64,000 nt of DNA from Ostreococcus lucimarinus (taxonomy: Eukaryota), in assembly GCA_000092065.1 (NCBI GenBank), contig CP000583.1; one strand, written 5' to 3'. The notes beneath the pieces are model-generated. The model did no database searches and had not been told where the DNA came from. It was given only the letters and a program-made list of their open reading frames with translations. A program made the translations under genes and the position numbers. Of this stretch, positions 6,567 through 57,754 are shown one piece after another. Numbering within the stretch: the stretch's first letter is position 1; each line of letters begins with the position of its first letter.

Positions 6567-7499
6567 TCACCATCCCGACTGCTTGAGCGTCTCGTAAACG
6601 CCAAAGGAAATCGCGGAACCGGGCGCGACCGCGGCGACGCGCGCGCCCGCGCCCGCGAACAATCCACGCGCGCCTTCGCGCTTAAACACGTCTCGTAACA
6701 CCTCACGCAACGACGCCGACGTCGTCGTCTCGAACCGCATCGTCTGCAAGCGCGTCTTGGCCAAATCGAGCGGGTGCGTGAGCGTCGTCGCCGCCGTCGC
6801 CGCCGCCGTCGCGCTCACCGCGCTCACCATCGGCGACGCCTCACCACCGCTCGACTCCAACGCAACGCGCGATCGTTCGTATATCGCAAAGTACGCCGCC
6901 GACCACGGCCACCACACGAAATTCTGCGCCCAGTATCCCCGAAACAGTCCCCGCGCGCCCTCCTCTCGCGCGATGACGCGCGCCGCGTCCACCCAATGTC
7001 TATACCGTCCCATCCTCGCGCGTTCGCCCAGCACGTCTTGCGTCTGCAATCTTTCCTTTATCACGTCCATCGGCGTGTACACCACTCCCGCGAGCGCTTG
7101 CGCCCACATCCCCGTCGCCGCGCTCGCGCTCGCGCTCGTCCCGAACCATCGCGTCCCGCTCTCGTACCCGACGAAGTACGCCCCGCTCGCGAGCGGCGCG
7201 AGCGCCGCGACGGCGCCGAATCCTTTATATAATCCCACCGCGCGCGTTCGTCCGCCCTCGGCGCGCGCGACGGCGCCGCGCGCGCCTCGGACTTGCGCGC
7301 GCGCCTTGAGCGTGTCCATGGGGTGCGTCAAGAAACGCGCCGCGAGCCCGCTGACGGCGCCGCGCGCGCCGTCGGCGAGGACGCCGTCGAGCGCGGACGC
7401 CGCGGCGGGGTCCGCGCCGCGCGCGCGGGCGCTCGACATGCGGCGAGCGACGCGCGCCGCGTCCGCGTGTGACGCGTGTGTTGTGTGATAAATACACAC
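6567..7499 (-). CDS. Mitochondrial carrier family (SLC25) protein
   Basis: Three repeats with P-x-D-x-x-K-x-R signatures (PMDTLKARAQ, PMDVIKERLQ, PLDLAKTRLQ). ATG at 7499; alternative start MSSAR at 7437. Confidence 0.75.
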   Translation of the reverse strand: MCIYHTTHASHADAARVARRMSSARARGADPAAASALDGVLADGARGAVSGLAARFLTHPMDTLKARAQVRGARGAVARAEGGRTRAVGLYKGFGAVAALAPLASGAYFVGYESGTRWFGTSASASAATGMWAQALAGVVYTPMDVIKERLQTQDVLGERARMGRYRHWVDAARVIAREEGARGLFRGYWAQNFVWWPWSAAYFAIYERSRVALESSGGEASPMVSAVSATAAATAATTLTHPLDLAKTRLQTMRFETTTSASLREVLRDVFKREGARGLFAGAGARVAAVAPGSAISFGVYETLKQSGW

Positions 7500-7635
7500 A
7501 TCGGTGCTTTTTCGATTAAATACGTAAAGTAGGGTTTACGTGGTGCGTCGACGTCGATGCGTCGCGCGCTTATCCGGCGCGCGCCGCAGACGACGACGCG
7601 CGCGCGCCACGCGAGCGGCGCGCGACGCGGCGCAC

Positions 7636-30040: not shown

Positions 30041-30799
30041 ACAAGCAACCGAAGAAAGAATGGAAACTCGCCTACGTTTTAATCGATCAATCAATCATTC
30101 AACAAGTCTTCGCACACGCGCTCGTGCCCGCGCGCGAGGTAGAAAATCACAAGCGTCGACCATATTTTTGCGGTCTAGCTCTCGTATGCGCAATCAGTGT
30201 GGCACATGATACTAAAATACTTTTACCACTGGGGCCGGTCGCCGTTTTCGTCGCGGAAAGTCGAACCGTTTACGCACACGCGCGCGCCGGTATGCGTCTT
30301 AGCCACGTCAACGACCGGAAGTCGACCGGAACGCGCGATGACGACGGAAACGACGACGATCCCTCCAATAAAGGGGGGTCGAAACGCCGCGCGTTGTCGA
30401 TGGAAACCGCCATCAATACGGCAGTCACGGCGACGGCGGCGGCGACGAAAGACGCGCGAGTTAAAGGCGAAGAGGTCTTAACGGAGTCCACACCCCTCGA
30501 GGTGGATCGTGCGATGAGCGAGCGAAGCGGTGCAAAGGAACATCTCGTTCACGCCGTGAAAAATCCAAAGCGGCGTCGGCGCGGTCGCCGCACGCCACCG
30601 TTGAGCGAGCGTCCGAAGACGTTGAGCGGGGCAATTCGTGAGATCCGCGCCACATTGGTCGATCCAACGATAGCAAAGCTCGAATTCTATCGGGAAAAGA
30701 TATCCGGCGCCGCGGGCCAGGAGGAAGGTGGAGACACGACCGAGCCGTGAGCGTCGCCGCGACCGACGGCGACCCCCTCGCCCGGACGCCGGGCGCTCG

Positions 30800-30840
30800 A
30801 GCGCCAAGACACATCAACACACATCAACACACATCAACAC
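30800..30840. repeat. (ACACATCA)n tandem repeat, about 4 units
   Basis: Direct reading: acacatcaacacacatcaacacacatcaacac. Confidence 0.8.
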
Positions 30841-30970
30841 GAGTAAACACGATTAATATCCTGTGTTTTACTATCTTAGCATCGTAGACAACGTCGGTAG
30901 CTGACGTACGTATTAATATAGACGGTAAAACACTACTACTGTACTGTGGGTGAACCACCCCGCCCCAGCG

Positions 30971-31004
30971 GTCGGTCGGTCGGTCGATCGATCGATCGTC
31001 GTCG
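30971..31004. repeat. (GGTC)n/(GATC)n microsatellite about 40 bp upstream of the CCT5 start codon
   Basis: gtcggtcggtcggtcgatcgatcgatcgtcgtcg. Confidence 0.8.
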
Positions 31005-31044
31005 ACGACGCCGCACAATCAGCCCGGCGGCCCGCGACGGAACC

Positions 31045-31092
31045 ATGTCGCTGGCGTTCGATGAGTTCGGGCGACCGTTCATCATCATCAAG
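31045..31092 (+). CDS. CCT5: CCT5 exon 1 (MSLAFDEFGRPFIIIK), followed by a GTGCGAGG donor
   Basis: Matches the N-terminus of TCP-1 epsilon (human ...LAFDEYGRPFLIIK). Coordinates +/-2. Confidence 0.65.
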
Positions 31093-31247
31093 GTGCGAGG
31101 GCGACGAACGAGCCGTCGCGGTATCCGCGCGCGCGGCGGACGAACGAACGGACGCGCGCGCGCGACGTGCGCGCGCGATGGTGAAGGACTCGCGCGATGC
31201 GATCGGGACACTGACGCTGGAACGCGTTTGTCGTTTACGCGATGCAG

Positions 31248-31352
31248 GAACAAGGAGCGAAAACGCGCGTGCGCGGGATCGATGCTCAGAAAGCGAACAT
31301 CGCGGCGGCGAAGAGCGTCGCTCGAACGCTTCGGTCTTCGCTCGGGCCAAAG
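31248..31352 (+). CDS. CCT5: CCT5 exon 2 ([35 protein letters not shown]), with a CAG acceptor and a GTGAGA donor
   Basis: Aligns with human CCT5 [32 protein letters not shown]. Coordinates +/-2. Confidence 0.6.
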
Positions 31353-31469
31353 GTGAGATGAAGACGCGGCGACGCGCGCGACGTTTGACTTTTTCGTAAA
31401 GCGAAGCGAGACGCGATTCATTCGCGCGGCGACTGACGAGAGGCGACGCGATGTCGCGAAATATCGTAG

Positions 31470-31515
31470 GGTATGGATAAGATTTTACAGTCTGGCGACG
31501 GCGACATCACGATAA
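31470..31515 (+). CDS. CCT5: CCT5 exon 3 (GMDKILQSGDGDITIT, split codon), with a TAG acceptor and a GTGCGT donor
   Basis: Aligns with GLDKMMVDKDGDVTVT. Coordinates +/-2. Confidence 0.6.
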
Positions 31516-31602
31516 GTGCGTGTGCGATTTCGAAACTCGAGGCGAAGCGCTCGCGAGGTTTGACTTTCGAACGCGATGACTGACGGTCATTTTATCTCGC
31601 AG

Positions 31603-33014
31603 CAAATGATGGAGCGACTATTTTGGATCAAATGGAAGTCGAACATGAGATCGGTAAGCTCATGGTTGAGCTGTCCAAGTCGCAGGACTACGAGATCGGT
31701 GATGGGACGACCGGCGTGGTGGTTTTAGCGGGCGCGCTGTTGGAGCAAGCCGAGTCACTTCTTGACCGCGGTATCCATCCCCTTCGAATCGCGGAAGGCT
31801 ACGAGATGGCGTCCAAGGTGGCGACAAAGGAGCTGGCAAGAATCAGCGAAAAGTTCGAATTCGATGCGGAGAATATCGAACCGTTAATTCAAACGTGTAT
31901 GACGACGCTGAGTAGTAAGATTGTGAACCGGTGCAAGCGCGAAATGGCAGAGATTTGCGTGAAGGCTGTGATGGCGGTGGCCGACTTAGAACGTAAGGAT
32001 GTGAACTTAGACTTGATTAAGGTTGAAGGCAAGGTGGGCGGCAAGCTAGAAGATACCATGTTGGTGAACGGTATCGTGTTGGACAAGGACATCAGCCACC
32101 CGCAGATGGCGAAGGAGATTAAGGACGCAAAGATCGCCATCTTGACTTGCCCTTTTGAGCCGCCAAAGCCGAAGACGAAGCACAAGATTGAAATCGACAC
32201 GGCGGAAAAGTACGAGGAGCTCCGTCAGCAAGAAGAAAAGTACTTTAACGACATGGTGAAGCAATGCAAGGACTGTGGCGCGACGCTCGTCATTTGCCAG
32301 TGGGGTTTTGATGACGAGGCAAATTCGATGCTCATGCAGCAAAAGCTTCCCGCCATTCGCTGGGTCGGTGGTGTCGAGCTTGAGCTTTTGGCTATCGCCA
32401 CTGGCGGTCGTATCGTACCGCGATTCACGGAGTTAACGCCAGAGAAACTCGGTTCAGCGGGCATGGTGAAGGAGGTTTCGTTTGGAACGACTAAGGAACG
32501 CATGGTAATCATTGAAGACTGCGCCGCGAGCAAAGCGGTCACAGTCTTCGTGCGCGGCGGCAACAAAATGATGGTTGATGAAACGAAGCGTTCTCTGCAT
32601 GACGCGATCTGTGTTGCTCGCAACTTGGTTCGATCGAACAACATTGTGTACGGCGGCGGTTCTGCTGAAGTTGCGTGCGCAATCGCCGTCGAGGAGGAAG
32701 CCGACAAGATTCCAAGCGTCGAGCAATACGCCATGCGCGCCTTCGCGGACGCTCTTGACGCTGTTCCGAACGCTTTGGCCGAAAACAGCGGCCTTCCTCC
32801 GATCGAGAGCGTGGCCACGATCAAGGCGCAGCAATTGAAGGACAAGAATCCGTTCCTCGGCGTCGACTGCAAAGAAATTGGCACCAACGACATGAAGTCT
32901 CAGGGCGTGTTCGAGACTCTCATCGGCAAGCAGCAACAAATTTTGCTCGCCACGCAAGTCGTCAAGCTCATTCTCAAGATTGACGACGTAATCTTAGCGG
33001 GAGAAGGGCAGTAG
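31603..33014 (+). CDS. CCT5: CCT5 exon 4 ([28 protein letters not shown] ... to the stop); T-complex protein 1 subunit epsilon
   Basis: A TCTCGCAG acceptor precedes the exon. High identity to CCT5 throughout; the four exons together encode about 536 aa. Confidence 0.85.
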
Positions 33015-33039
33015 TCGCCTTCTCTTCATTCAACACTTT

Positions 33040-33807
33040 ATGAATAGACAGCCAACCGACGCGCGTCACTCCCCGCACTCCCACTCCCTTCACGATCGAA
33101 GTCCTCCACCTCGCGCGCGCGCGCGGACGAGGATGCTCATCATCGACATCATCGACCACGTCGCCGCGCGGCGTCTCTTCCCCGAGCTCCGCGCCGCGCA
33201 CGTCGAATGTTTTCCGAACGATGTCCCGAACGACGAGTGCGTCCCGAACGATGGCGAGACCGAGGACGCCTTCTTCGATCGCGTCACCTGGCTCCACGAA
33301 GAGCGCGAAACAACGTGGTTCGTCCTGCGCGAGCTCGATGCGCGCGGACGTCGCGGTGCGATCGTCGGTTTTGCGTGTGGGTGCGCGTACGCGGATAGCT
33401 GGTACGGCGCGCACCTGGGCGTCGTCCCGAGACGGCGAGGCGAAGGGCTTGGATCGTATCTCATGTACGTTTCGCAGGCGCACGCGGGGAAATTAGGTAT
33501 CACTCGGTTGCAGGCGAGCGTGGAGGTGGATGGGAAGATCGGGCGAGGACGGTTGCTGAAGTATTACGAAAGGCACGGTGCTCGCGCGGTGGAGACGGGC
33601 TTTGGGAGCACAGGGTCGGTGGCGGCGAGCGTGATTCGGATAGAGAGAGCGTTTACGTTAGAGGTGGCGTTGAGGGAACTAGAAGATTCAGAGCGACGAG
33701 TGCGTGGATCAGCGCACTCGAGGAGTCGAAGCAATCGGTGGTTTGTCGCGGCGGCGATGACGGTTGTTTGCGTCGTCCTTCAAAAGCTGAGGTCTAGAAG
33801 GAAATAG
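33040..33807 (+). CDS. GNAT-family N-acetyltransferase
   Basis: Acetyl-CoA-binding motif region VVPRRRGEGLGSYLM. The ATG at 33040 lies only 25 bp after the CCT5 stop; the alternative start ATG 33133 (MLIIDIID) is more likely. Confidence 0.6.
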   Translation: MNRQPTDARHSPHSHSLHDRSPPPRARARTRMLIIDIIDHVAARRLFPELRAAHVECFPNDVPNDECVPNDGETEDAFFDRVTWLHEERETTWFVLRELDARGRRGAIVGFACGCAYADSWYGAHLGVVPRRRGEGLGSYLMYVSQAHAGKLGITRLQASVEVDGKIGRGRLLKYYERHGARAVETGFGSTGSVAASVIRIERAFTLEVALRELEDSERRVRGSAHSRSRSNRWFVAAAMTVVCVVLQKLRSRRK

Positions 33808-33876
33808 AGTAGCATTAGTTGGTCTTCGTTGTATTTTACAAGGTACAAATGTAGGAAATAACTAATGTCAGCTAAT

Positions 33877-35472
33877 TCAGAGCTCTGTGACTTTCCAATT
33901 CGTTGGGATCGCGGGCTCGGCGTCGTCATTCTCTCTCCGCGCCGCGACGTCCTCGATGGGCATCTGTTCTCGCCTCACCACTCTCGGTCTTCCAGTTTCT
34001 CTATTCAGTTCGACGCCGAGACTTCTAGAGAGAAGCTCTTCACTTTCTTCTACGGCTTGAGGTTGAAGCTCGGCGATTTTACTGCGCGCCAGCTCACTAC
34101 TTTGCGTTAAGTTTCGCACTGCCCAAAGCGCCCACTCTCGGAGGTACGCCTCGCCTTCTTCGCCTCTCGTATGATTTAACACTATGGGTAATCCTCCCAA
34201 ATTCGCGACATCGTCACAGACACGCGCGCGATTGAACGCTGCGTTTCCAATAATCGCGATCAGGTCGACTCTGTAACCAGACCACGGGACTCGAGACGGA
34301 TACGTGACGTCGCTCTTCAACTCTTCCGGCACGCTTTGCTTGAGCTTCGGAGCGGCGGCGGGTCCCGTTGCCTTACTCGTCTGTCCTATACCTTCTGGTG
34401 CAGGTAACGCCGCGAGAAGCGATAGGGTAAGCCTGACGAGACCCATTGCCGCTAAACACGCGACGGTGTCGCCAGCATGAGGCTTCACCTCGCGCTCACT
34501 CATCGCGCGCAAAATACTCACGCACTCCATGAGTATCGACAGCGCAACTTTTCGCTCATCATCATCTACCGCGGCTTCGAACCGTGCGGCGACGACAGAG
34601 GTGGTATCTAATAGAAACGCTAAAACGCCTTCTGGCATTAAAAGTGGTGGTTGCTCGCCCTCGCGTATCTCGGAGTGAGGAATGTCGACGTACGACGTCG
34701 CATCTTTGTCGTTCAACAATGCAGCAATGAAATGCAGCAAAGTCGCCTGTTCGGACGTAAACACCATCTGAGGTAGATTCGTTTTGTGCGTACTTTCCAT
34801 GACCTCATTCACCCGAGAATCATCTTCGGCGAGCTCGACAAGACGCGCGCGAAGCATGGCCTCATTGAGAGCAGAAATTTCAGCACCGTTCGGCGATAAC
34901 GCGCGGAAAAGTTTTGGTAAACCGCCTCCTTTGCAACATATCGTACGAATCAGCGTCATCAAATGCGTACCACCGCCGACATTCTCGGGTTCTTCAACTT
35001 CTGTTGACGCACGCAATAGCGAGAGCCAAAAACTCTGCGCCATATCCACGACTTTCTCCGCGCGAGCGCCGTCGTGCTTCACGCACGCGTCCACGAATAC
35101 GCACGCCAATCCGTGCGTCTTCGCCCCTCCAATCCCGCGCAGTGAAGTCACGGCTTTGAGTGCATCTTCCATCGCCTCGCACTCCCACGCCTCGGTCAAA
35201 CACTCGCCATCGTCCATCCCCGCGTTGACGACGGTTTGCAACGCGAACATCGCGCACTTCGCCCGCGCCTCCTCCTCCCTCCCACCGCGTGCCTCCATCG
35301 TCCCCATCTCGCGCACGATCTCCATCAACATTCTACATCCCTCGTTTTCCCTCAACCGAGTCGTCTCCGCCGCGTTCCCCGCGCACGCGTTCCGTCCCTC
35401 TCTCGCTTCCTTCGACGCGCCCTCCGCGTCTCGTCCCCGCGCGCGCCTCGCGCACTCAACAACGCTCTCCAT
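33877..35472 (-). CDS. Ataxin-10-like armadillo-repeat protein
   Basis: C-terminal LREWALWAVRNLTQSSELARSKIAEL matches the conserved Ataxin-10 domain motif. ATG at 35472. Confidence 0.6.
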   Translation of the reverse strand: MESVVECARRARGRDAEGASKEAREGRNACAGNAAETTRLRENEGCRMLMEIVREMGTMEARGGREEEARAKCAMFALQTVVNAGMDDGECLTEAWECEAMEDALKAVTSLRGIGGAKTHGLACVFVDACVKHDGARAEKVVDMAQSFWLSLLRASTEVEEPENVGGGTHLMTLIRTICCKGGGLPKLFRALSPNGAEISALNEAMLRARLVELAEDDSRVNEVMESTHKTNLPQMVFTSEQATLLHFIAALLNDKDATSYVDIPHSEIREGEQPPLLMPEGVLAFLLDTTSVVAARFEAAVDDDERKVALSILMECVSILRAMSEREVKPHAGDTVACLAAMGLVRLTLSLLAALPAPEGIGQTSKATGPAAAPKLKQSVPEELKSDVTYPSRVPWSGYRVDLIAIIGNAAFNRARVCDDVANLGGLPIVLNHTRGEEGEAYLREWALWAVRNLTQSSELARSKIAELQPQAVEESEELLSRSLGVELNRETGRPRVVRREQMPIEDVAARRENDDAEPAIPTNWKVTEL

Positions 35473-36007
35473 CTCCCCTCGCCTTCCCTCGGCTCGGTCC
35501 TTGACAGCACAGCAGCAACGTCCACCCTCGCGCCAGGGCGAAGACGCCCGCTTCGCAGTGATTCCTTTCGCGCGCCGCTTTCGTCCCCGCGTGTCGCGGT
35601 TTCACCGGCGCGAATTCCGCGTCGTCCGCCGCGCTCGCGAACGCGCTCGCCGACGCGCTCTCGCTCAGCGCGCTCGCGGACTCGCTCGCGCTCAGCGCCG
35701 GTCCCGTCGTCCCGTCCCGCGCGCTCGATCGAGCGTCGCGCGCGTCGCGCATCGACGACGCGGCGCCGAGTGCCGCCGAGCGACCGCAATCCGCGACGCG
35801 CGGTCGATCGACGCGTCGAGCGCGACGCGCGATGAGCGGGACGATGCGCGTGGCGAACTGCCCGAGTCAGGTGCGCGCGCGCGCGGCGCGCGAGGGCGAG
35901 ACGAGCGCGAGCGAGCGCGATTCGAGATTGCGAATCGAATCGCGCGTCGAATCGTGAAACGATGAAACGACGAAGACTGACGGAGACGCGACGCGCGCGG
36001 GACGCAG

Positions 36008-38194
36008 GAACTGGCGCTGACGAACTGCGCGTTCGTGAACGATGCCGACGTCGAGGCGTGCGCGCCGTACGTGGAGATTGGCGATTGCGTGTTTTTGACG
36101 CGCGCGAGCGCGGAGGTGGCGCCGGGGGCGGTGGGACTCAACGGCGTGCAGCGAAAACAGCTGCGAGTGAGCACCGGAGACGCGGTGAAGTGGCGAAAGT
36201 ACGAACCGCCGAGCCGAGAGTTCGATTGCGCGGGAATGACGATCGAGTTGGAGTTCACGCGACCGGCGTTAGCGGCGAGTTTGATCGCGAAGAACGCGCA
36301 CGAGGGCGTGGACGCGAATTCGATGACGACGATTTTGCGTAGGACATTTAGCTCGCAGGTGTTCACCGTGGGACAAAAGGCGGCGGTTGAGTACTGTGGG
36401 AATAATTATTTGCTTAGTGTGAATCACGTCGTCGTGGAGGGGGCGAGGGAAGGCGTGACATCGCTGCGAGGGATGTTTACGCCGTCGACGGCCGTCGTGT
36501 ACGAGGCGTCGTCCAATAGCGGTATAAAAATTTTAGGTCAAAAAGCGGCGGTGATGAACACAGGGTTGTTCAAGAGTAAAGATTTTAGTTTTTCCAAGCT
36601 CGGAATCGGGGGTCTGGATCAACAATTCGAGGACATCTTTCGACGAGCGTTTTCGTCGAGAATTTTCCCGCAGAGCGTAGTGCAACGCCTCGGGATCCAA
36701 CACGTCAAAGGTATGCTCCTTCACGGTCCCCCGGGTACGGGCAAAACTCTGATCGCGAGGCAAATCGGGAAAATGTTGAACGGCAAAGAGCCGAAAATCG
36801 TGAACGGGCCGGAGGTAATGTCCAAGTACGTCGGACAATCGGAAGAAAACGTTCGTAAGTTGTTTGAAGACGCCGAAGCCGAGTACAAAGCGCGCGGAGA
36901 CGATAGTGATTTGCACATCATAATCTTCGACGAGATCGATGCGGTGTGTAAATCTCGTGGAAGTGTTTCGAGTGGCACAGGCGTGCACGACTCCATAGTC
37001 AACCAGTTGCTTACGAAGATTGACGGCGTCGACGCGTTGAACAACATCTTGCTCATCGGTATGACGAATAGAAAGGATATGTTGGACGAGGCAATCTTGC
37101 GCCCCGGTCGCTTAGAGGTGCACATCGAAATCGGTTTGCCCGATGAGAACGGACGGATACAGATCTTGAACATTCACTCGAATAAGATGAGTGAAAATGA
37201 GTTTCTCGGCGGCGACGTCGACTTGGCGGAATTGGCCAAGCGCACGGGCAACTTTAGCGGAGCTGAGATTGAAGGCTTGGTGAAATCCGCGGTGTCGTTC
37301 GCGCTGACGAGGCAAGTGGATATGAATGATATCGGTGCACCGATTGACGAAGATAATATCAAAGTCACGATGGCAGATTTCGAGCTCGCGCTGCTCGAGG
37401 TCAAACCAGCGTTTGGGGCGTCGACGGATCTATTCGAACGGTGCATGTTGAATGGAATGATTTCGTACGGAGAAAAGTACGAAAAGCTCGTCTCGACCAT
37501 GGAGTCACTCATCGAGCAAGTCAGGGTGTCGGAGAAGACTCCCATGCTGACGTGCTTGCTCGAAGGTGGCGCCGGGAGTGGAAAAACGGCGCTCGCAGCC
37601 GCGCTCGCGATCAAGTCGCAGTTCCCGTTCACCAAGCTCTTGACCTCAGACGGTTTCGTCGGTGCCTCCGAAGCGGCGAAGTGTCAAGCTCTCGCAAAAT
37701 TGTTCGATGATGCCTACAAGTCGCCGGTCTCGTTGATCGTATTGGACGATATCGAGCGCTTGCTCGAGTACGTCGCCATCGGCCCGCGCTTTAGCAACGT
37801 CGTCTTGCAGGCGCTCTTGGTGTTGCTCAAACGTCAACCCCCACCCGGACGAAAGCTGTTGGTGATCGGTACGACGTCGTTACCACTCGTTTTCGAGGAC
37901 ATGGGTCTCAACGCCGCCTTCAACGTCTCCTTACACGTTCCCGAGTTGAGCCCTAGCGAAACCTCCGCCGTGCTCGCCGAGCTCGGCGCCTTTGACGCCG
38001 TCGATCTTCCGCGGGCGTGTCAAGCGCTCCAAGCCCTCACGGGCGACCGCGTGCCGATTAAGCGATTATTCATGCTTCTCGAGATGGCGCGTCACGGCAA
38101 AGACGATCTCGGCGATTCCATGGACGTCGGCGACGGCCGTCGCGTCGTCGCCCTCGACCGCTGGGTCGCCTGTCTTCGCGATCTCGCGCAGTGA
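36008..38194 (+). CDS. NSF: N-ethylmaleimide-sensitive factor (AAA+ ATPase; N domain plus D1 and D2). The 5' end is unresolved, with no in-frame ATG upstream of the first conserved residues
   Basis: ELALTNCAFVND... (compare human ELSLTNCAVVNE). Walker A GPPGTGKT in D1 and GAGSGKT in D2. A CAG acceptor at about 36005-36007 suggests an upstream mini-exon carrying the ATG. Confidence 0.85.
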   Translation, partial: ELALTNCAFVNDADVEACAPYVEIGDCVFLTRASAEVAPGAVGLNGVQRKQLRVSTGDAVKWRKYEPPSREFDCAGMTIELEFTRPALAASLIAKNAHEGVDANSMTTILRRTFSSQVFTVGQKAAVEYCGNNYLLSVNHVVVEGAREGVTSLRGMFTPSTAVVYEASSNSGIKILGQKAAVMNTGLFKSKDFSFSKLGIGGLDQQFEDIFRRAFSSRIFPQSVVQRLGIQHVKGMLLHGPPGTGKTLIARQIGKMLNGKEPKIVNGPEVMSKYVGQSEENVRKLFEDAEAEYKARGDDSDLHIIIFDEIDAVCKSRGSVSSGTGVHDSIVNQLLTKIDGVDALNNILLIGMTNRKDMLDEAILRPGRLEVHIEIGLPDENGRIQILNIHSNKMSENEFLGGDVDLAELAKRTGNFSGAEIEGLVKSAVSFALTRQVDMNDIGAPIDEDNIKVTMADFELALLEVKPAFGASTDLFERCMLNGMISYGEKYEKLVSTMESLIEQVRVSEKTPMLTCLLEGGAGSGKTALAAALAIKSQFPFTKLLTSDGFVGASEAAKCQALAKLFDDAYKSPVSLIVLDDIERLLEYVAIGPRFSNVVLQALLVLLKRQPPPGRKLLVIGTTSLPLVFEDMGLNAAFNVSLHVPELSPSETSAVLAELGAFDAVDLPRACQALQALTGDRVPIKRLFMLLEMARHGKDDLGDSMDVGDGRRVVALDRWVACLRDLAQ

Positions 38195-38366
38195 GCGCGT
38201 CGCGCTCGCGCGCGCCGCGCGTCGCGCGCGTCGTCGCCGCGTCGCGCGCGTCTTAGATCTACTACTTCGTATATATCACAATCAAATCTCGCTCTTCGTC
38301 ACCGCGCGCGTCGCCTCTCGCCTCGCCGCTCGATCACCCATCAATCGCCCCGTCCTCCGCGCTCGC

Positions 38367-38501
38367 TCACTTCTTCGCCGACGACCGCCCGAACAGCCCG
38401 GTGAATCCGTTGACGACGATCCCGTACGTCAATCCCGCGGTCACCGCGCCGACGCGCAGGAACGCGGCGAGCGAGCTCGTCCCCGAGTACGGCCCACCCA
38501 T
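38367..38501 (-). CDS. Possible 44-aa single-pass membrane micro-protein (MGGPYSGTSSLAAFLRVGAVTAGLTYGIVVNGFTGLFGRSSAKK)
   Basis: First ATG in its frame. Gly-rich GxxxG-type hydrophobic helix. Sits in the 3' region after NSF. It could be a chance ORF. Confidence 0.2.
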   Translation of the reverse strand: MGGPYSGTSSLAAFLRVGAVTAGLTYGIVVNGFTGLFGRSSAKK

Positions 38502-38582
38502 CGCGCGCGTCGCAGTGCCGGCACCCAGGCAGGCAGTCGACCGGCGACCAGTGGCCGAATGCTGAACACTTAATACTTTTAA

Positions 38583-38692
38583 TTCTCGTCGAGTTTTCTG
38601 CGCATTTACCGTGATTTAGAGCTATGCGTTCAAAACTCGCGAATGCGTTTTGTCCAGCCTGCGCAACGCCGATTTCTTAAACCCTTTTCATA
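38583..38692. repeat. Left copy of a dispersed repeat pair: segment A (38583..38665, about 83 bp) followed by segment B (38672..38692, atttcttaaacccttttcata)
   Basis: Segment A has 80/83 identity with 39752..39834; segment B is identical to 39715..39735. The order here is A-B, but B-A in the right copy. Confidence 0.85.
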
Positions 38693-38742
38693 AGGAATTT
38701 ACCGTACTGTAATTTACCCCCGGGATCTCGCGGGATGATAGG

Positions 38743-38749
38743 TATAAAT
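38743..38749 (+). promoter_or_regulatory. TATAAAT box about 200 bp upstream of the ATG at 38948
   Basis: ggTATAAATcaattaatata, in the only AT-rich stretch of the window. Confidence 0.3.
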
Positions 38750-38947
38750 CAATTAATATATGTGGTCATACGGCCAAATAGTGAGGCTCCATATGTCCGA
38801 CCGACCATGTCGACACCCGCGACACCCGTGTCAACACCCGCGAGTATGGGTCCATGTTTGATTTGATTCTCGCGCGGGGTTGGCAGGCAATTCACTCACT
38901 CCTCCACGCGTCCGCGTCAGCAATTCACTCCTCGACGCGTCGCGGCG

Positions 38948-39676
38948 ATGAACGCGTACGACTCCATCGAACGCGGCGCTGCCGACGAGTGCGAACCTTT
39001 AACAGGACGACGACCACGGACGTTTACTCTCACGCAACTGCTCGTCGCGTGCGGCGCCGTGTGCGTCTGTGCGATCGGGGCGACGATGTTCGTGAACACT
39101 CACGCTCAACTGGCCGACGCTGGTTATGGTGGCGACTCGATCCAATCCTCTGGTTGTCCAATTCAAGACTGGGTTGATGATTCTTTGTGCGCGGCGAGTC
39201 CGCCCGGCCTATCCGAGTCTAAAAGCCGAGGTCGCGCGCTGCTTGGCTCGCGAAACACATCAAGTGAAACATCAATTGACACATCAAGTGACACATCAAG
39301 TGAAACATCAATTGACAACACATCAAGTGACACATCAAGTGACACATCATCAGACACATCAAGTTCCAATCAAGTGTCCATTCCGTCGTGCGCAAAAATA
39401 CCGCCGCGTCCGAAATCAAGTGATTCGGTAAGCTGCAACGGCCACGGTTGGTGTCATGAAGGCACAACGGCAAGTGGCAACAAGCCACACTGCGATTGCA
39501 ACGCTGGTTATGGTGGATCTCATTGCGAAACGAAGATTCTGAACCTGGAAGACCTCAGTATCAAAGTCGCCGACATCGAGGAGGAGATGGAGAAAATGGC
39601 TGAATCCGCAGTCGAGACCATCAAACTCGAGGAGCAACCGCTGCTGCACGAGCACGGGCACGAGCATGGGGAATGA
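38948..39676 (+). CDS. Secreted/type-II membrane mucin-like protein with (SSDT/SSET)n repeats, one EGF-like Cys domain (CNGHGWCHEG...CDCNAGYGGSHC) and a His/Glu-rich C-terminus. Its codon usage is unlike the rest of the window
   Basis: Signal-anchor LLVACGAVCVCAIGATMF. The repeat region is encoded by a 12-bp tandem DNA repeat. A/T-ending codons (tca agt gac aca, gaa aca tca att) contrast with the GC3-rich neighbouring genes. Confidence 0.65.
   Translation: MNAYDSIERGAADECEPLTGRRPRTFTLTQLLVACGAVCVCAIGATMFVNTHAQLADAGYGGDSIQSSGCPIQDWVDDSLCAASPPGLSESKSRGRALLGSRNTSSETSIDTSSDTSSETSIDNTSSDTSSDTSSDTSSSNQVSIPSCAKIPPRPKSSDSVSCNGHGWCHEGTTASGNKPHCDCNAGYGGSHCETKILNLEDLSIKVADIEEEMEKMAESAVETIKLEEQPLLHEHGHEHGE
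39255..39365 (+). repeat. About 9 copies of a 12-bp coding tandem repeat (acatcaagtgac) encoding the Ser/Thr/Asp-rich mucin-like region
   Basis: Direct reading. Confidence 0.8.
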
Positions 39677-39714
39677 CACTACTGAGCGACCCACAATTTC
39701 AAGCAAATTCAAGA

Positions 39715-39834
39715 ATAATTTTCAATTTCTTAAACCCTTTTCATATATATCTTATATATATTTCTTGTCGAGTTTTCTGCGCATTTACCGTGATTTAGAG
39801 CTATGCGTTCGAAACTCGCGAATGCGTTTTGTCC
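39715..39834. repeat. Right copy of the dispersed repeat pair: segment B (39715..39735) then segment A (39752..39834)
   Basis: See the left copy. Together the two copies bracket the AT-rich gene 38948..39676. Confidence 0.85.
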
Positions 39835-39912
39835 AGCCCGCGCACGCCCGCGACTGAAATTTGAAACGTTCGCGACGACGCGCGACGCTGGCGCGAGAGC
39901 GAGACGCGCGAC

Positions 39913-40123
39913 ATGCTGCGCGCGACGCGCGGAGGGATGGCGTGCGCGTCGATGGCGCGCGCGCGGGCCGCGCGGGCCGCGACCCCGACGCCGCGATGCG
40001 TCGCGGCGGCGGCGTTCGGACGCGGACGCGCGGGCGCGGGGAAGGCGATGACGGTGCGCTTCGGCGTCGGGGCGACGCGCCGAGGCGCGGCGCGAGGGAA
40101 GTCCGCGAGCGTGGGCGGTGGGA

Positions 40124-40165
<42 letters not shown>

Positions 40166-40770
40166 GCGACGGCGGTGGCGACGGCGCGGCGGGCGGCGTT
40201 CAAACGTTGTGGGCGGCGTATCTCAACGCGCTCGAAAAGAATCCGTTGGCGACGAAGTGCGCGACGAGTGGGGTGCTGAATGCGTTGGGTGATTTGTTTG
40301 CGCAGTTTTCGTTCGATGACGCCGCGAAGAAGGGGATCGATTGGCGTCGGGCGGGCGTGTTTACGTTTCTCGGCGGCGCGTTGGTTGGACCCGCGCTGCA
40401 CTTTTGGTACGGCACGCTCGGGAAGATTGTCACCGCGCAAGGCAGCGCCAAGGCGTTCATCAGCTTGGTTTTAGATCAAGGTTTGTTCGCGCCGGCGTTT
40501 TTGTGCGTGTTTTTGAGCTCGCTGTTCACGATCGAAGGCAAGGCGAGCGAAATCGTTCCCAAGCTCAAGCAAGATTTTGCGCCGACGGTGATGGCGAACT
40601 GGAACATCTGGATCCCTTTCCAGTTCTTGAATTTCCGTTTCGTTCCGCTGAACTTGCAAGTCGCTGCCGCTAACGTCGTGGCGCTGTTATGGAACACGTA
40701 CCTCTCGTGGGCGTCGCACAAGGAAGTCGTCGTCGAGACGGCGAGCAAAGGAAAGAAGAGTAAGAAGTAG
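39913..40770 (+). CDS. Mpv17/PMP22-family membrane protein with an N-terminal transit-like peptide and a poly-Gly tract
   Basis: WAAYLNALEKNPLATKCATSGVLNALGDLFAQ ... NWNIWIPFQFLNFRFVPLNLQVAAANVVALLWNTYLSW are typical of Mpv17/PMP22. A (GGC)12 run at 40126..40163 encodes G13. Confidence 0.8.
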
Positions 40771-40831
40771 TTCTGGTGGAGGTTAGTTGTTTTTAATACG
40801 ATATACACTACAAGCAAGCGAACAGATGAAA

Positions 40832-42037
40832 TCAAATCGTCGCCCCCGAACACGAAGACCCCGAGCCCGCGGTGCAGCCGAAACAATGGTTGTCCGCGAC
40901 GATGCGCGAGCCGACCAAGTCGTCGCACGAGTCGAGATCGAAAATTGTCTTCTTCTCATCGCGCACCGGCATGTCGAGTTGTTGGTTGAAGTCGCAGTCG
41001 TACAGCGTTCCATCCCAAGACACGCTGATCAGATCACGGCACATTACCCCCACCGAAGCCGCAACGTTGAAATTTTCGACGAGTAAACTCATGTACTCGC
41101 TCGTCTTGCCCTCGCGATGCAAATAATCGGCAAAGCGCTTGATGGGCATGTTCGTCAACGTGAACAATCGCGAGAATTCCACGCCCCAAGTATCTCTCAA
41201 CTCGCTGCGGTACGCCACCTCTAGGTTTTCTTGCGCCGGTGGCAAGAATGCTCCTCCAGGATTATACATGAGATCGAGCTCGAGCCCCGAGCCTTCGACC
41301 CCGTATCCGACGGCGTTCAAGTCGCGCAACGCCGCGATGGATCTTTCGAACACCCCTTTTCCTCGCTGCGCGTCCGTGTTCGCCTCGCTGTAACATGGTA
41401 ACGAAGCGACTACTTTGACCTTATTTTCTGCCAAAAACTGTGGCAAATCCTCCTGCCCCTCCTCGTACAGCACCGTCAAGTTGCACCTGTCGATGACGTC
41501 GACGCCGAGCGCCCTCGCCTCGCGAACGAGAAATCTAAACTGCTCGTGCAACTCGGGCGCCCCCCCAGTGAGATCCAACGTCTTCACGTTCGAAGAATTT
41601 TTCAGCACGCGCACCACGGCTTGCGCCGTCGCCGCATCCATCACCTCCGTCGTGCGCAACGGCGACGATTCCACGTGACAGTGCGCGCACGCCTGGTTAC
41701 AATACAACCCAATGTTTACTTGTAAAATCGTCGTCGGCTCGCGAATCAGCGCCTTCCCCCCTCGCGTCTCGAGATACGACTCGAACGACGGCACCCCGAT
41801 CGTGTCCAGCGCCCGTCGTCGTCGCGCGCGCTCTTCCTTCGTCAGCGCTTTTTGTCCGAGCGTTTCCAGCCGCGTCTTGGCTGTCTGAAACTCGTCATCC
41901 GTCGCCATTTCTGCGAGCGTTTCGTCGATGATGCTGTCGAAACGGCGCGCGACGCGCGCGGAAGTCGTCGAGAACGTCTGTTTGCGCGTCTTCGCGCGGA
42001 GCGTCGACGGCGCGACCGGCGACGCACGGGCGAGCAT
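40832..42037 (-). CDS. Radical SAM/Cys-rich-domain protein of the ArsS family (arsenosugar-biosynthesis radical SAM (seleno)protein)
   Basis: Radical-SAM CNQACAHCH cluster motif plus the family-typical C-terminal Cys-rich tail CFGCTAGSGSSCSG. TGA stop. Convergent with the Mpv17 gene, with about 60 bp between the stops. Confidence 0.8.
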   Translation of the reverse strand: MLARASPVAPSTLRAKTRKQTFSTTSARVARRFDSIIDETLAEMATDDEFQTAKTRLETLGQKALTKEERARRRRALDTIGVPSFESYLETRGGKALIREPTTILQVNIGLYCNQACAHCHVESSPLRTTEVMDAATAQAVVRVLKNSSNVKTLDLTGGAPELHEQFRFLVREARALGVDVIDRCNLTVLYEEGQEDLPQFLAENKVKVVASLPCYSEANTDAQRGKGVFERSIAALRDLNAVGYGVEGSGLELDLMYNPGGAFLPPAQENLEVAYRSELRDTWGVEFSRLFTLTNMPIKRFADYLHREGKTSEYMSLLVENFNVAASVGVMCRDLISVSWDGTLYDCDFNQQLDMPVRDEKKTIFDLDSCDDLVGSRIVADNHCFGCTAGSGSSCSGATI

Positions 42038-42080
42038 GGTGCGGAGTTGTGACGTCGAGTGACTTTTTTGAGATTACAGC

Positions 42081-44042
42081 CTACGGCGTCGAGTCGGCGA
42101 CGCGGTCGTCGTCGTACACGTCTCTAGGAGCAGTGGACACGCGCGGACCGTTTTCGAGATTGAATTTTGTCTCGAGCGAGGTCTTGACCGGGGTTTGACG
42201 GCGCTTAATGAGAGCGATTTCGGATTTGATCTCGTCGAGGCGCTGCTGCGCCGACGACGGCGTCGCCTTGCTCGCGAACGCGGCGCCAGAGCCGAGATCG
42301 GTGACGCGAGACCAACTTGCGCGGGTTTGCGTCGTCGGTGTCGACGTTGGACTACCACGAAGCGTTCGATGGAAGTCAATCGTGGCGCCGAGTTGGGTGC
42401 GCCAGGCCTCGTCGGCGCTCGAAGGCGAGGGCGTCGCCGCGAGACGACCTCGCAAGTCGTGCTTTTCTATTCTCAGACGCTGCACCTCCACGTTGGCTTC
42501 GCGCTGGGCTTGAATCGAGCGCAGCACCGAGGCTTCGGCATCGGCGGTAAAATCGGCGATGGTTTGTTTTGCCGCTTCGATTTGCGCGATTTGACGCTCG
42601 AGATCGATGCGTCGACGCCGTTCCTCGTGAAGCTCGAACTCGAGCTCTTGCTTCGCCATCAAAGCAGAATTCGCGATCGTCGCTTGTTTTTGCGCCTCAA
42701 CCGCGGCATCGCGCGCAGACGCAGTGTGTTTTGACACTTGCATCGCGTGATCTTGTACTTGTTCGGCGCACTCGAAGCGAATCTCTTCTTTTTCACGCGC
42801 CGCCGCTCGTTCGGCATCGCCAATTTTTGCCACCAAGCGCTCAACTTCACCGCTCAACCGCTTGACATCTTTTTCGAAGATTTTCGCCCGATTGATCGCA
42901 TCTGTGCGCTCTTGAAGTGCGATGGCGAGCTCTTTCGAGCTCGTGTGTTCCCGCAAGGTGACGCCATCGATCATTTGCTCCAGTTCAGCGTTACGCGCCT
43001 CCTTTGCAAAGCTCTCTTCCGTTTTCTTCAAAAGCGTCTCCGTCAACCGCACGTTTTCGTCCCTCGCCGCGCGCAAGTGCGCCAGCGTCAACCTTAAATG
43101 TTCATCTGCGGTAGATTTCGCGGAATTTATCACCGCAATCTCACGTCTGAGCTCGAGGTTTTCTTGTACTAACGCCGACTCGGACACCTCGCCGCTTCCC
43201 AACGCGGAGACTTCATTCTTAGCGTGTGCCGCCATGATCTCCGAAGTCTCGGCTCTTCGCATCGCCTTATCACGTTCTTCGCTTGCAATTTGTAAATCTT
43301 TGCGCAGAGCTTCGTTTTCTCGACCCATGACTTCCTCGAGCGAACGATAGCGTTCGAGCTTGAGTCTCTGCTCATCGTAATCGGACCGAAGCTGCGCCGC
43401 GCGTTCTTGCTGAAACTCCAAATTCTTCGTCAGATTCCGCACCTTGATCTCGTAAGACACCGTTGAGTTATCGAAATATCCCTCCTCTGTTGTTCGGCCG
43501 CTTTTTGCCGCCCCCTCGCGCGCTCTCGCCGCCTCTAATTCCGCCTCCGCCTCGCGCAACGCGTCCGAAAGCAACAGATTCTCCTCACGAAGATCCCTGA
43601 CCAACGCGCTCGACGACCCCGACGTCGACGCCGTCGGCGTCATCCTGGCATCACGATCCAATCGTGCGCGCAGACCTTCCCCCCCCCGCGCGCACATCGC
43701 CTCCACGAGCGCCTCCGCCTCGCGCGCGTCTCTCGCCCGCAACCGCATCGCCTTCGTCTCCCCCACCACCACCACCCCGAGCTCCACGTCCGCGCCTCGC
43801 GTCCGCGCGCGCGCGACGCTCGACAGCGGAAACTTCCCCAGCATCGCTCGTCGCGTTCGCGCGCCCGCGCGTCCGCGCGCGCCGTCGTCGTCGTCGATTA
43901 ATCGATCGATGCGCAACCCGCGCGCGGAGACGTCGACCCGCGCGACGACGCCGTCGCCGCGCGCGCCGTCGCCCAGGACGCGCACGTCGAACGTCGCGCT
44001 GTCGTCCTCGCCGCGCGTCGCCGCGGCGGGCATCGCGCGCGA
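42081..44042 (-). CDS. PH-like domain followed by a long myosin-tail-like coiled-coil protein
   Basis: Continuous heptad-rich E/R/A/L sequence over about 550 aa. The N-terminal FDVRVLGDG...GKFPLSS...EAEALVEAM resembles a PH fold. The track ORF extends to 45110 but the upstream part is antisense junk; the first plausible ATG (MPAAATRG) is at about 44042. Confidence 0.5.
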   Translation of the reverse strand, partial: SRAMPAAATRGEDDSATFDVRVLGDGARGDGVVARVDVSARGLRIDRLIDDDDGARGRAGARTRRAMLGKFPLSSVARARTRGADVELGVVVVGETKAMRLRARDAREAEALVEAMCARGGEGLRARLDRDARMTPTASTSGSSSALVRDLREENLLLSDALREAEAELEAARAREGAAKSGRTTEEGYFDNSTVSYEIKVRNLTKNLEFQQERAAQLRSDYDEQRLKLERYRSLEEVMGRENEALRKDLQIASEERDKAMRRAETSEIMAAHAKNEVSALGSGEVSESALVQENLELRREIAVINSAKSTADEHLRLTLAHLRAARDENVRLTETLLKKTEESFAKEARNAELEQMIDGVTLREHTSSKELAIALQERTDAINRAKIFEKDVKRLSGEVERLVAKIGDAERAAAREKEEIRFECAEQVQDHAMQVSKHTASARDAAVEAQKQATIANSALMAKQELEFELHEERRRRIDLERQIAQIEAAKQTIADFTADAEASVLRSIQAQREANVEVQRLRIEKHDLRGRLAATPSPSSADEAWRTQLGATIDFHRTLRGSPTSTPTTQTRASWSRVTDLGSGAAFASKATPSSAQQRLDEIKSEIALIKRRQTPVKTSLETKFNLENGPRVSTAPRDVYDDDRVADSTP

Positions 44043-44520
44043 GTCGCGACGCCGGCCGCGGTCGCGATGTGACGCGACCGGCACTGCACGCCGCGCGACG
44101 CCGCGCGCGCGTCGACGCCGCGACTCGCGCGGACGCGCGAGCGGTGCGCGGCGAGAGAGGGCGCGGTGCGTCGCGACCGCGCGTCTCGCGAGGGCGTCGG
44201 CGCGCGCGAGCGCGAGCGCGAGCGCGATGACGATCGGAAGCAGAGCCGTTACGGCGCGCGCGGCGAACGCGTCGGTGAATCGCGCGTCCACGTCGCGCGC
44301 GCGATGCGACGGCGCGATGGGACGGTTGAGCGCACTCGCGAACGATCGACGCGGACGCGCGAGGACGGGGCGACGGACGCGAGGGAGAGGGACGCGAGCG
44401 AGGGACGGGGACGGGGACGGGGACGACGACGAGCCGGGCGGCGACGGGTACTCCGATCGAGACCGCGCGAGCGGGCGGCGAAGCGCGAGAGAGCGGGCGA
44501 AGAGTCGGGCGGAACGCGCG

Positions 44521-57313: not shown

Positions 57314-57685
57314 ATGCCCGGTAAACCGCCGCGAAACGAGCGCTCGCTGGTGTGTTTCATCCAAGCTCTAGTCGGGACCACGGTCGTGATCGAATGCCGC
57401 GATGACGTCGCGCTCAGGGGTCACCTCGAGCAGTGCGATGAGGGCATGCACTGCACGCTCACGAATGCAATCCGCGTCACGCCCGAGGGGCACAAGACTA
57501 AGCTCGAGCGCGTGTTCGTGCGCGCGCGCATGATACGTTACGTACACTTCGCGCCGACGATCGATCCGTTAGAGCTGATCGAACAGAAGAGGCTCGAGTG
57601 GTTCAATGCGTCGAGGCACTACGCGGGCAAGGCGGCGTTTGGTCCCAAGAACGCGCCCAAGGTACGGGATGCGGAGGCTAGGTAG
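57314..57685 (+). CDS. Sm-like protein, closest in motif to LSm10 (U7 snRNP)
   Basis: SLVCFIQALVGTTVVIECRDDVALRGHLEQCDEGMHCTL ... VFVRARMIRYVHFAP (compare LSm10 LFVTGRNVRYVHIPD). Confidence 0.55.
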   Translation: MPGKPPRNERSLVCFIQALVGTTVVIECRDDVALRGHLEQCDEGMHCTLTNAIRVTPEGHKTKLERVFVRARMIRYVHFAPTIDPLELIEQKRLEWFNASRHYAGKAAFGPKNAPKVRDAEAR

Positions 57686-57754
57686 AAAAGCGTACAGTAG
57701 ATAAATAGAATGAATAGCATGCTTTGTGTAATATTACAGTGTATCATCAAATCA

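Follow-up and report, generated by a model that had tools for sequence, protein, structure and literature searches.

The question raised by this locus is how a gene of unusual composition came to lie between long direct repeats within a colinear block of standard GC content. The locus is part of a 64-kb stretch (64,000 nt, hereafter the window) of Ostreococcus lucimarinus DNA (contig CP000583.1), in which it occupies the divergent intergenic region between a conserved 44-aa open reading frame (ORF) and a gene of the Mpv17/PMP22 family and carries a coding sequence (CDS) for a protein of 242 aa at 38948-39676; coordinates are positions in the window, and features are on the plus strand unless stated otherwise. 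An earlier inspection of the letters alone, here called the sequence-only reading, had described an AT-rich island bounded by rearranged direct repeats and had suggested a recently acquired or mobile cassette, for example of viral or transposon origin. The answer that we favour, with a probability of about three in four, is that the island is a young and still polymorphic 1,067-nt insertion of a complete gene unit of a host family into a minisatellite, in which neither a transposon nor a virus took part.

Self-comparison of the window resolves the flanking repeats into two parts, A (86 nt) and B (21 nt). A1 occupies 38580-38665 and A2, directly upstream of the Mpv17 gene, 39759-39844, and the two are 95% identical over 86 nt. 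The 83-bp repeat pair noticed by the sequence-only reading is indeed 80/83 identical, with its left member at 38583-38665 as reported, while the right member lies at 39762-39844 and had been placed 10 nt too low (39752-39834). B1 (38672-38692) and B2 (39725-39745, at the right end of the insert) are identical, exact copies of the 21-nt ATTTCTTAAACCCTTTTCATA. A and B each occur twice in the window, where zero copies of either would be expected, and A precedes B on the left but follows it on the right; the bracketing by a 21-bp motif and the swap of order between the two sides, both pointed out previously, were confirmed.

The nature of these repeats is given by alleles that lack the gene. A scan of metagenome contigs with the core of A yielded seven contigs, all of which (7/7) map to this locus, two of them filled (L032, L033) and five empty (L028-L031 and L034); the filled alleles considered here are these two and L001-L010 (n = 12). 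Read base by base, the empty alleles have the form ...GAACAC(T/C)-[A]-(A)CGCCG-[B]-CCC-[A]-...-Mpv17, in which A, six nucleotides, B and CCC make up one tandem unit of 113-114 nt. Two units (A-B-A) are present in L029, L030 and L031, and three (A-B-A-B-A) in L034. A1 corresponds to the A part of the first unit, which is present in all four of these alleles, and A2, by allele alignment, to that of the last, partial unit. With head-to-tail units whose copy number varies among individuals, the array is a minisatellite (variable number tandem repeat), and A and B are native intergenic sequence, not the ends of a mobile element.

Alignment of L028, L029, L030, L031 and L034 to the window places the breakpoints of the inserted segment at 38693 and 39759 (1,067 nt). 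The insert consists of the gene unit (38693-39724), the second B copy and a 14-nt TA-rich filler, TATATCTTATATAT (39746-39759), and it takes the place of the CCC that separates B from the following A in the empty alleles, with the filler now lying between B and A. The junctions read B1-AGGAATTT on the left and B2-TATATC on the right. The empty allele L029 aligns to 30187-38692 (99.4%) and then directly to 39762-44092 (99.8%); L031 and L030 have the same A-B-CCC-A arrangement, and L028, which starts inside B, reads B-CCC-A and continues into the right flank. The flanks of the alleles are about 99.4-99.8% identical to the window; L031 and L034 are exceptions in that each has a short left flank of about 96% identity. 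Per 3-kb flank, about 3-6 sites separate island from empty alleles. Both come from a single population at the species level, in which the insertion segregates as a polymorphism and the gene is dispensable. The sequence-only reading had proposed looking for presence or absence of the island in related strains; both kinds of allele were found.

Within the carriers the insert is nearly uniform. Among the 12 island alleles, which come from different samples, it is invariant except for one single-nucleotide polymorphism at 38703 (in L009, next to an aberrant contig end); from the variation of the flanks one would predict about three variable sites, and among the same alleles the A2 unit and the TA filler in front of A1 do vary. 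This near-zero diversity lends mild support to a young age. A1 and A2 differ at four positions in the window, of which two, 39811 (G/A) and 39839 (C/T), are polymorphic among island alleles; the A copies were therefore near-identical at the time of insertion. Marine metagenome contigs that encode the exact protein are 99.4-100% identical to the window in DNA, and at least 57 collection blocks contain contigs with the exact 242-aa protein, its neighbours being the same in 10/10 of the places shown.

The hypervariable filler was also seen outside the insert. The site before each A unit, between ...C and ATTCTCGTCGAG, holds TA-rich sequence (TTAATACTTTTA, TTTATATATATATA or TATATCTTATATAT) or a single base, and before A1 (38570-38581) it reads TTAATACTTTTA in the window, and TTTATATATATATA in L029 (at about 8385-8398 of that contig), while in L030, L031 and L034 it consists of one base, T or C. 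At this left site the filler varies in island and empty alleles alike, and the position just before the A units looks like a local hotspot for TA-rich insertions. An unusual contig end was observed in L009 (Tara ERR599300), in which positions 1-148 join the insert, from about 38704, to another left flank consisting of (TTCAATAAACCATG)n, a 14-nt tandem repeat, followed by unique sequence. The right side of L009 runs normally into Mpv17, and its left flank occurs in no other fetched locus; the contig may represent the donor or another copy of the insert joined chimerically via the shared 1 kb, or else a further structural variant.

The same site was compared in three other Ostreococcus-like lineages (L024, L025 and L026/L027), retrieved via Mpv17 homologues of 82-89% amino acid identity, in which the NSF gene is about 76% identical to that of the window at the nucleotide level. 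The order NSF, 44-aa gene, Mpv17, radical SAM is kept in 3/3 of these lineages, and in none of the three does a gene lie between the 44-aa gene and Mpv17, an interval that measures about 250-360 nt in the outgroups (judged by eye on the sequence) versus 1,411 nt in the window. The sequence-only reading had named syntenic orthologues conserved among relatives as a finding that would speak against acquisition; at this site none of the three lineages has one.

The inserted gene belongs to a family whose other members reside elsewhere. The contigs carrying homologues, identified by protein search, have a GC content of 0.52-0.56 and often contain tandem arrays, and the GC content at third codon positions (GC3) of the family is 0.59-0.62 versus 0.55 for the island gene. 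The arrayed paralogues match the window only over a 5' module (38905-39103; 93-97% nucleotide identity), comprising about 45 nt of 5' untranslated region and the first 156 nt of the CDS, that is codons 1-52, which encode a cytoplasmic tail and a single transmembrane anchor, and they are unrelated beyond it. More extensive matches were obtained for two contigs. In the closest, L037, identity is 96.5% over 38902-39247 and complete over 39406-39648 (243 nt), and the upstream region of L037 is homologous to the island from at least 38747 (about 75-80%, with indels); L036, part of a tandem array, is 96.8% identical over 38912-39253 and 96.7% over 39389-39633. Both lack the Ser/Thr repeat and the His/Glu tail of the window protein. 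Because these matches extend through the CDS and into the upstream region, the island is a dispersed copy of the family that includes its upstream region, and the copied gene would later have gained the expansion of the stem repeat and a new 3' end. The atypical composition of the island is likewise explained, since the family resides in lower-GC, outlier-like DNA.

The neighbours of the paralogues are cellular genes (VTC, PFK, ankyrin/zinc-finger). For the paralogue on L023, the neighbouring PFK and ankyrin proteins cluster at 90% identity or above with proteins that are also encoded on contigs of 0.93-1.6 Mb, which argues for a cellular and not a viral home genome. Chromosome assignment of the paralogue contigs via cluster look-ups was attempted and yielded no chromosome labels. 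A more distant homologue, the O. tauri-like P0041 (L011, 6001-6711), is 40-50% identical and sits at an unrelated locus on a standard chromosome, between a gene adjoining fumarate hydratase and CDC6/ORC1, with a host-like GC3 of 0.74. A blastp search of P0041 found no anchor module. A repeat-flanked low-GC structure was also looked for around it, and the composition proved ordinary, with no flanking repeats found.

The protein itself has a predicted layout of anchor, Ser/Thr/Asp-rich stem, EGF-like domain, acidic helix and His/Glu tail. It contains one hydrophobic segment at about aa 26-49, following RRPR (aa 21-24), with a Kyte-Doolittle peak of 2.46 at aa 31-49, and a helix at 28-57 in the structure model (low confidence); these are the features of a type II (signal-anchor) membrane protein, as a predicted topology. 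The stem is encoded by a 12-nt tandem repeat of 10 copies with a 36-nt super-period (39255-39376; TSSD/TSSE/TSID), in agreement with the internal 12-bp coding repeats of the sequence-only reading. Over aa 101-145 (45 aa) it is 62% Ser+Thr and 18% Asp+Glu. With these Ser/Thr repeats the protein is a candidate mucin, in which the stem would be O-glycosylated; at the same time the repeat is acidic in part, lacks Pro and is short (about 40 aa). The EGF-like domain (39389-39526) has six Cys (aa 148, 163, 169, 182, 184 and 193), and the PS00022-type signature CDCNAGYGGSHC at aa 182-193 fits C-x-C-x(2)-[GP]-[FYW]-x(4,8)-C; the Cys and signature columns are invariant in nine homologues. Sequence matches in the PDB to TGF-alpha, alliinase, uromodulin and EGF (E = 0.2-0.9) are consistent with this assignment but weak. 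An acidic helix is predicted at about aa 200-228, and the tail, HEHGHEHGE, is itself a 12-nt duplication in the window. An NCBIfam search with the gene product returned nothing, and the product has no GT29 match in Pfam. The protein is most likely a glycoprotein of the secretory pathway (Golgi) or the cell surface, judging from these sequence features.

The alleles suggest how the insertion may have arisen. The target would have been the minisatellite of 113-114-nt units, with 2- and 3-unit alleles, between the 44-aa gene and Mpv17, and the inserted unit an upstream region, CDS and short 3' end copied from the large low-GC host family. In one route the insert would replace the middle A of a 3-unit allele, with no duplication needed; in the other it would enter a 2-unit allele with a 21-nt target duplication. 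The two routes are equivalent in giving the same product, A-B-insert-B-A, and since both fit it, B2 may have belonged to a third unit or may have arisen by duplication of 21 nt of the target. The swapped order of A and B follows from the insertion of DNA into a tandem array. At the left junction the short direct repeat AATTTACC occurs at 38696-38703 and 38712-38719, and the duplicate may be templated filler; TA-rich filler stands on the right. Such junctions could result from end joining that captured a fragment of about 1 kb, or from a replicative template switch to a donor and back 21 nt upstream, during break repair, and from their anatomy we infer break repair rather than transposition. 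Each flanking gene retains one full A, and the insertion may for that reason have been tolerated or harmless.

Whether the empty alleles might be secondary to an older, resident gene has to be considered in view of the 86- and 21-nt direct repeats around it, which could drive its deletion, and of a right flank that is somewhat more diverse in the empty alleles than in the island alleles, a pattern also expected of a geographically separate lineage that lost the gene. Recombination between the two A copies would leave a single A. No match to this product was obtained in a pattern scan of metagenome contigs, whose left anchor included the TA filler of the island haplotype and could detect only deletion derivatives of that haplotype, and the A-core scan contained no single-A allele either, every contig having at least two units or the island. 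Recombination between the B copies would leave B-TATATCTTATATAT-ATTTCTTG, which was not found among the empty alleles; these have B-CCC-ATTCTCG instead, the same junction as between the internal units of the 3-unit allele. In addition, the gene is missing at the site in the three outgroup lineages, and the insert is almost without diversity and 100% identical to a paralogue over 243 nt. Deletion of an older gene is therefore improbable; with regular junctions, no scars of A x A or B x B recombination and three outgroups lacking the gene, the empty state is probably ancestral, and we infer that the insertion is derived. False empty contigs produced by repeat collapse would be the least probable explanation of all. 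Repeats of 86 nt or more did break or mislead the assemblers (L010 and L030 end in A, L006 has a gap and L008 loops), but a collapse of A1 and A2 would give a single A with island flanks, not A-B-CCC-A, and the CCC/ATTCTCG junction occurs nowhere in the island allele. Moreover, the same junction is present in five independent contigs from different projects, and both 2- and 3-unit versions occur.

The two origins named by the sequence-only reading fare little better. As a transposable element or its remnant (a miniature inverted-repeat transposable element (MITE), a pair of solo long terminal repeats (LTRs) or the cargo of a DNA transposon), the island would have A as terminal direct repeats and the exact 21-nt B, which brackets the core, as target-site duplication, and direct repeats around a compositionally odd, gene-carrying segment are what such an element would present. 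However, A and B pre-date the insert as two or three tandem units at the empty site, A is confined to this locus (7/7 metagenome contigs, both copies in the window, none in the paralogue loci), and the 21-nt B is equally explained by two neighbouring tandem units. Self-comparison and inspection of the insert ends (38693; 39724-39759) found no terminal inverted repeats or LTRs, and the insert has no transposase or reverse-transcriptase ORF and no poly-A tail, which counts against a transposon; the membrane-protein CDS is its only ORF with a family match, the others being shorter and overlapping the CDS. The search for the 83-bp element elsewhere and for target-site features, suggested at the outset, thus largely counts against a transposon as well, the element being restricted to this locus in the metagenome scan. 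In L008 (10812-11134), A2 leads back into B1 and the first part of the insert, an arrangement expected of a tandem duplication or an excised circle; this candidate was set aside, since the A1 and A2 copies of that haplotype are identical over about 78 nt and a mis-join by the assembler is simpler. Bathycoccus, a relative within the Mamiellales, is furthermore reported to be without transposons (PMC3491373). Taken together, a transposon is very improbable, and horizontal acquisition from a prasinovirus or another giant virus hardly less so. The low-GC, host-atypical composition would suit a virus, the family member P0049 adjoins endonuclease-like ORFs (GIY-YIG, HNH) and numerous small ORFs of unknown kind, and short prasinovirus-derived stretches have been described on the outlier chromosome of O. 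tauri (PMC5498103). Against a virus, four scans of the 2.9 million viral contigs of IMG/VR, with the family alignment, the anchor peptide, the A core and the anchor DNA, gave no match, the paralogues adjoin cellular genes whose clusters include chromosome-sized contigs, and the O. tauri-like homologue lies on a standard chromosome with a GC3 of 0.74. Prasinovirus genomes have a GC content of about 41-45%, as opposed to 52-56% for the paralogue contigs. Of the sequence-only reading, recent acquisition was thus upheld, the gene being absent from three outgroups, polymorphic in the species, invariant in its carriers and related to paralogues in lower-GC DNA; a mobile cassette of transposon or viral origin bounded by its own repeats was not, given that A/B units pre-exist at the empty site, that element hallmarks were missing and that IMG/VR was negative.

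Several points nevertheless weigh against the insertion of a host-family copy as proposed here. The direction of change, gain versus loss, is derived from the form of the junctions and from outgroups with a nucleotide divergence of about 24%, and a precise loss followed by homogenisation of the repeats retains a small residual chance. Island and empty alleles were never seen together in one sample, and some population structure is possible. As to the source, the closest copy, L037, is an 827-nt contig of low coverage whose flanks are not visible, no donor locus was found, and about 50 nt on the left (38693-38746) and 76 nt on the right (39649-39724) have no match among the fetched sequences; the putative placement of the family on chromosome 18 or the low-GC part of chromosome 2 follows its composition. 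The repair mechanism is read from short motifs, the AATTTACC duplicate and the TA filler. For the protein, the anchor, Ser/Thr-rich stretch and His/Glu tail of the sequence-only reading stand, and its EGF-like domain has the six Cys and the signature, but every Pfam EGF match is below threshold (the best, EGF_alliinase, scores 23.6 bits against a cut-off of 25), and an AlphaFold2 model from a 9-sequence alignment reached a mean confidence (pLDDT) of 39.6, too poor to use, for which reason no fold search was made. Expression, function and cellular role of the product are likewise predictions.

Composition had been a main argument for a foreign cassette. The GC content of 38560-39860 is 0.507, versus 0.609 for the window, and falls in the lowest 1% of 1.3-kb windows. 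The claim that this is the only AT-rich segment does not hold: the lowest-GC stretch is 57.6-59.0 kb (0.48), and several other 300-nt windows are below 0.48. The stretch at 57600-59000 overlaps an ordinary ABC-F type ATPase gene (57755-59926, minus strand), and low GC alone is therefore no mark of foreign DNA here. The codon usage described as rich in A/T at third positions was recovered in part. Of 41 long ORFs (median 0.71) the gene has the lowest GC3, 0.55, and the real gene that comes closest reaches 0.58. Only the middle of the gene is low, at 0.29 across the Ser/Thr repeat and 0.49-0.50 near the EGF part; the two ends of the CDS (first 156 nt, last 129 nt) are host-like (0.71-0.72). The TATA box of the sequence-only reading is present as TATAAAT at 38743-38749, inside the insert and 199 nt upstream of the ATG, where it is a possible core promoter of the inserted gene. 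It is not remarkable in number, since TATAAAT occurs twice in the window versus 0.82 expected and 22/100 shuffles reach two, which is not significant, and it was dropped as evidence for a cassette.

Comparison with known systems places the event in a familiar class, that of gene-sized insertion polymorphisms, and what is less familiar is an outlier-type gene on a standard chromosome and a minisatellite in a bidirectional promoter region as the target. The low-GC, hypervariable outlier chromosomes of Mamiellales are described as rich in species-specific and glycan-related genes and as linked to virus resistance (PMC3491373; PMC5498103), and the small outlier chromosome of O. lucimarinus (chromosome 18) has a GC content of 53% (PMC3491373, Table 2). 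With these chromosomes the island shares its composition (0.51, with 0.52-0.56 for the paralogue contigs), a lineage-specific gene of a tandemly duplicated family linked to sialyltransferase-type and sugar genes, and a gene content that varies within the species, as reported for O. tauri (PMC5498103). Unlike them, it is a single 1-kb islet in a colinear block of standard GC, and the likeness is one of composition. Reported translocations in O. tauri run from standard chromosomes to the outlier (PMC5498103); the apparent direction of the island gene is the opposite. In 13 O. tauri strains, the standard chromosomes had only three validated insertions and 10 validated gene deletions (PMC5498103), again a presence or absence of small segments on otherwise conserved chromosomes of a panmictic picoalga. 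Those insertions, however, carried no known genes, whereas the island holds a complete gene of a defined family, its breakpoints are resolved to the base within a minisatellite, and its evidence comes from environmental contigs instead of cultured strains.

Insertions by end joining or template switching, of the type of microhomology-mediated break-induced replication and fork stalling and template switching (MMBIR/FoSTeS) or polymerase theta, resemble the island in the absence of transposon hallmarks, the AT-rich filler on the right, the two AATTTACC copies on the left and the 21-nt duplication. They differ in that the event proposed here is reconstructed from the anatomy of its junctions and in that a 3-unit ancestor losing one A needs no duplication. 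MITEs, LTR elements and transposon-captured genes share with the island the direct repeats around a segment of odd composition, but the island repeats pre-exist at the empty site as tandem units of one locus and come with no element functions. In genome scans, flanking direct repeats combined with odd composition should accordingly be viewed with caution, as here they do not denote a mobile element. The locus offers a base-resolved example of gene gain in a tiny, compact and apparently transposon-poor algal genome that is still polymorphic in the ocean, and it indicates that outlier-type genes are not confined to outlier chromosomes. Moreover, the junction sequences can be counted in metagenomes, which could reveal where and when carriers are favoured, for example under virus pressure.

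The family to which the gene belongs appears to be an undescribed, modular family of membrane-anchored proteins that includes sialyltransferase-like enzymes and may shape the cell surface. An exhaustive comparison of the 56-aa N-terminus with 1.84 billion representative proteins identified 70 proteins that are 52-94% identical in the module, and no distant relatives of the anchor module among these representatives. At least 70 distinct Ostreococcus proteins thus have a nearly identical module of this kind (observed in P0031-P0142, P0347-P0360 and P0436-P0462). It is present in 122/126 of the clusters retrieved at 90% identity, and the C-terminal parts that follow it are EGF-like, GT29 sialyltransferase, coiled coil, DUF285, acidic-repeat or a Cys-rich tail, most of them without a Pfam match. 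Between paralogues, only about 8% of third codon positions in the module differ, and similarity becomes random right after codon 52, which suggests recent shuffling or concerted evolution of the 5' module. The tail and anchor of the window protein are 73% identical over 67 aligned amino acids to P0076, a GT29-domain protein, and it has in common with type II Golgi GT29 sialyltransferases a short tail, a signal anchor and a Ser/Thr-rich stem; it differs in its ectodomain, EGF-like plus acidic helix instead of a catalytic domain. It is conceivable, if rather unlikely, that the island is one product of a cassette-like diversification, in which the module would serve as a recombination handle that swaps ectodomains, seeds copies and diversifies the surface or glycocalyx against prasinoviruses.

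A family locus with a sialyltransferase was observed on a 463-kb ENA contig (L038, 9938-10919; GC 0.47-0.54 over about 4.5-10 kb). Here an anchor ORF, 96 aa long from TTG and annotated as P0356 (75 aa), precedes a GT29 sialyltransferase-like ORF that lies in a different frame, and the break between them may be a frameshift, a pseudogene or a long-read error. The neighbours are sugar genes of the 3-deoxy-manno-octulosonate (KDO)/sialic-acid type (CTP_transf_3, DAHP_synth_1, SIS and another GT29).

The genes around the island are conserved. An NSF-type AAA ATPase (36035-38194) and a radical SAM gene (40832-42037, minus strand) were identified from the ORF list and Pfam, and the right neighbour (39913-40770) is assigned to the Mpv17/PMP22 family by PF04117 (80.4 bits), with syntenic orthologues in L024-L027. 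The radical SAM protein falls into a 90% cluster with XP_001416889 of O. lucimarinus CCE9901, and by its sequence the window is O. lucimarinus-like DNA of a standard chromosome. The left neighbour, the 44-aa ORF MGGPYSGTSSLAAFLRVGAVTAGLTYGIVVNGFTGLFGRSSAKK (38367-38501, minus strand), is 77-81% identical at the nucleotide level to the copies in L024-L027. Its translation is glycine-rich and hydrophobic and is kept in 4/4 of the Ostreococcus lineages examined; it is called as a gene in L004, though in only some of the metagenome annotations, and searches of Pfam and NCBIfam gave no match.

Repeat A was also examined for an RNA gene. Rfam (E up to 1) and ARAGORN found no structured RNA and no tRNA in the repeat and region, and hairpin stability compared with shuffles was not convincing (z = -2.1 and -0.9 on the plus strand, -1.1 and +0.5 on the minus strand). 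Repeat B holds TAAACCCT, which resembles the core of a telomere repeat (telo-box). This motif occurs three times in the window versus 0.26 expected, at 38678-38685 and 39731-39738, both in B, and at 7531-7538 (minus strand), the third copy lying within another divergent intergenic region (7440-7635). Paralogues carry TCTAAACCCTGATTTT about 65 nt upstream of the ATG, and L037 carries CCCTAAACCCTAA; motifs of the TAAACCCT type may be a promoter element. Finally, the N-terminal extension of Mpv17 contains a poly-Gly run, encoded by a (CGG)n tract at 40125-40198, and in the orthologues of L024-L026 the N-terminal regions vary in length and contain other triplet repeats (GAC/GAT).

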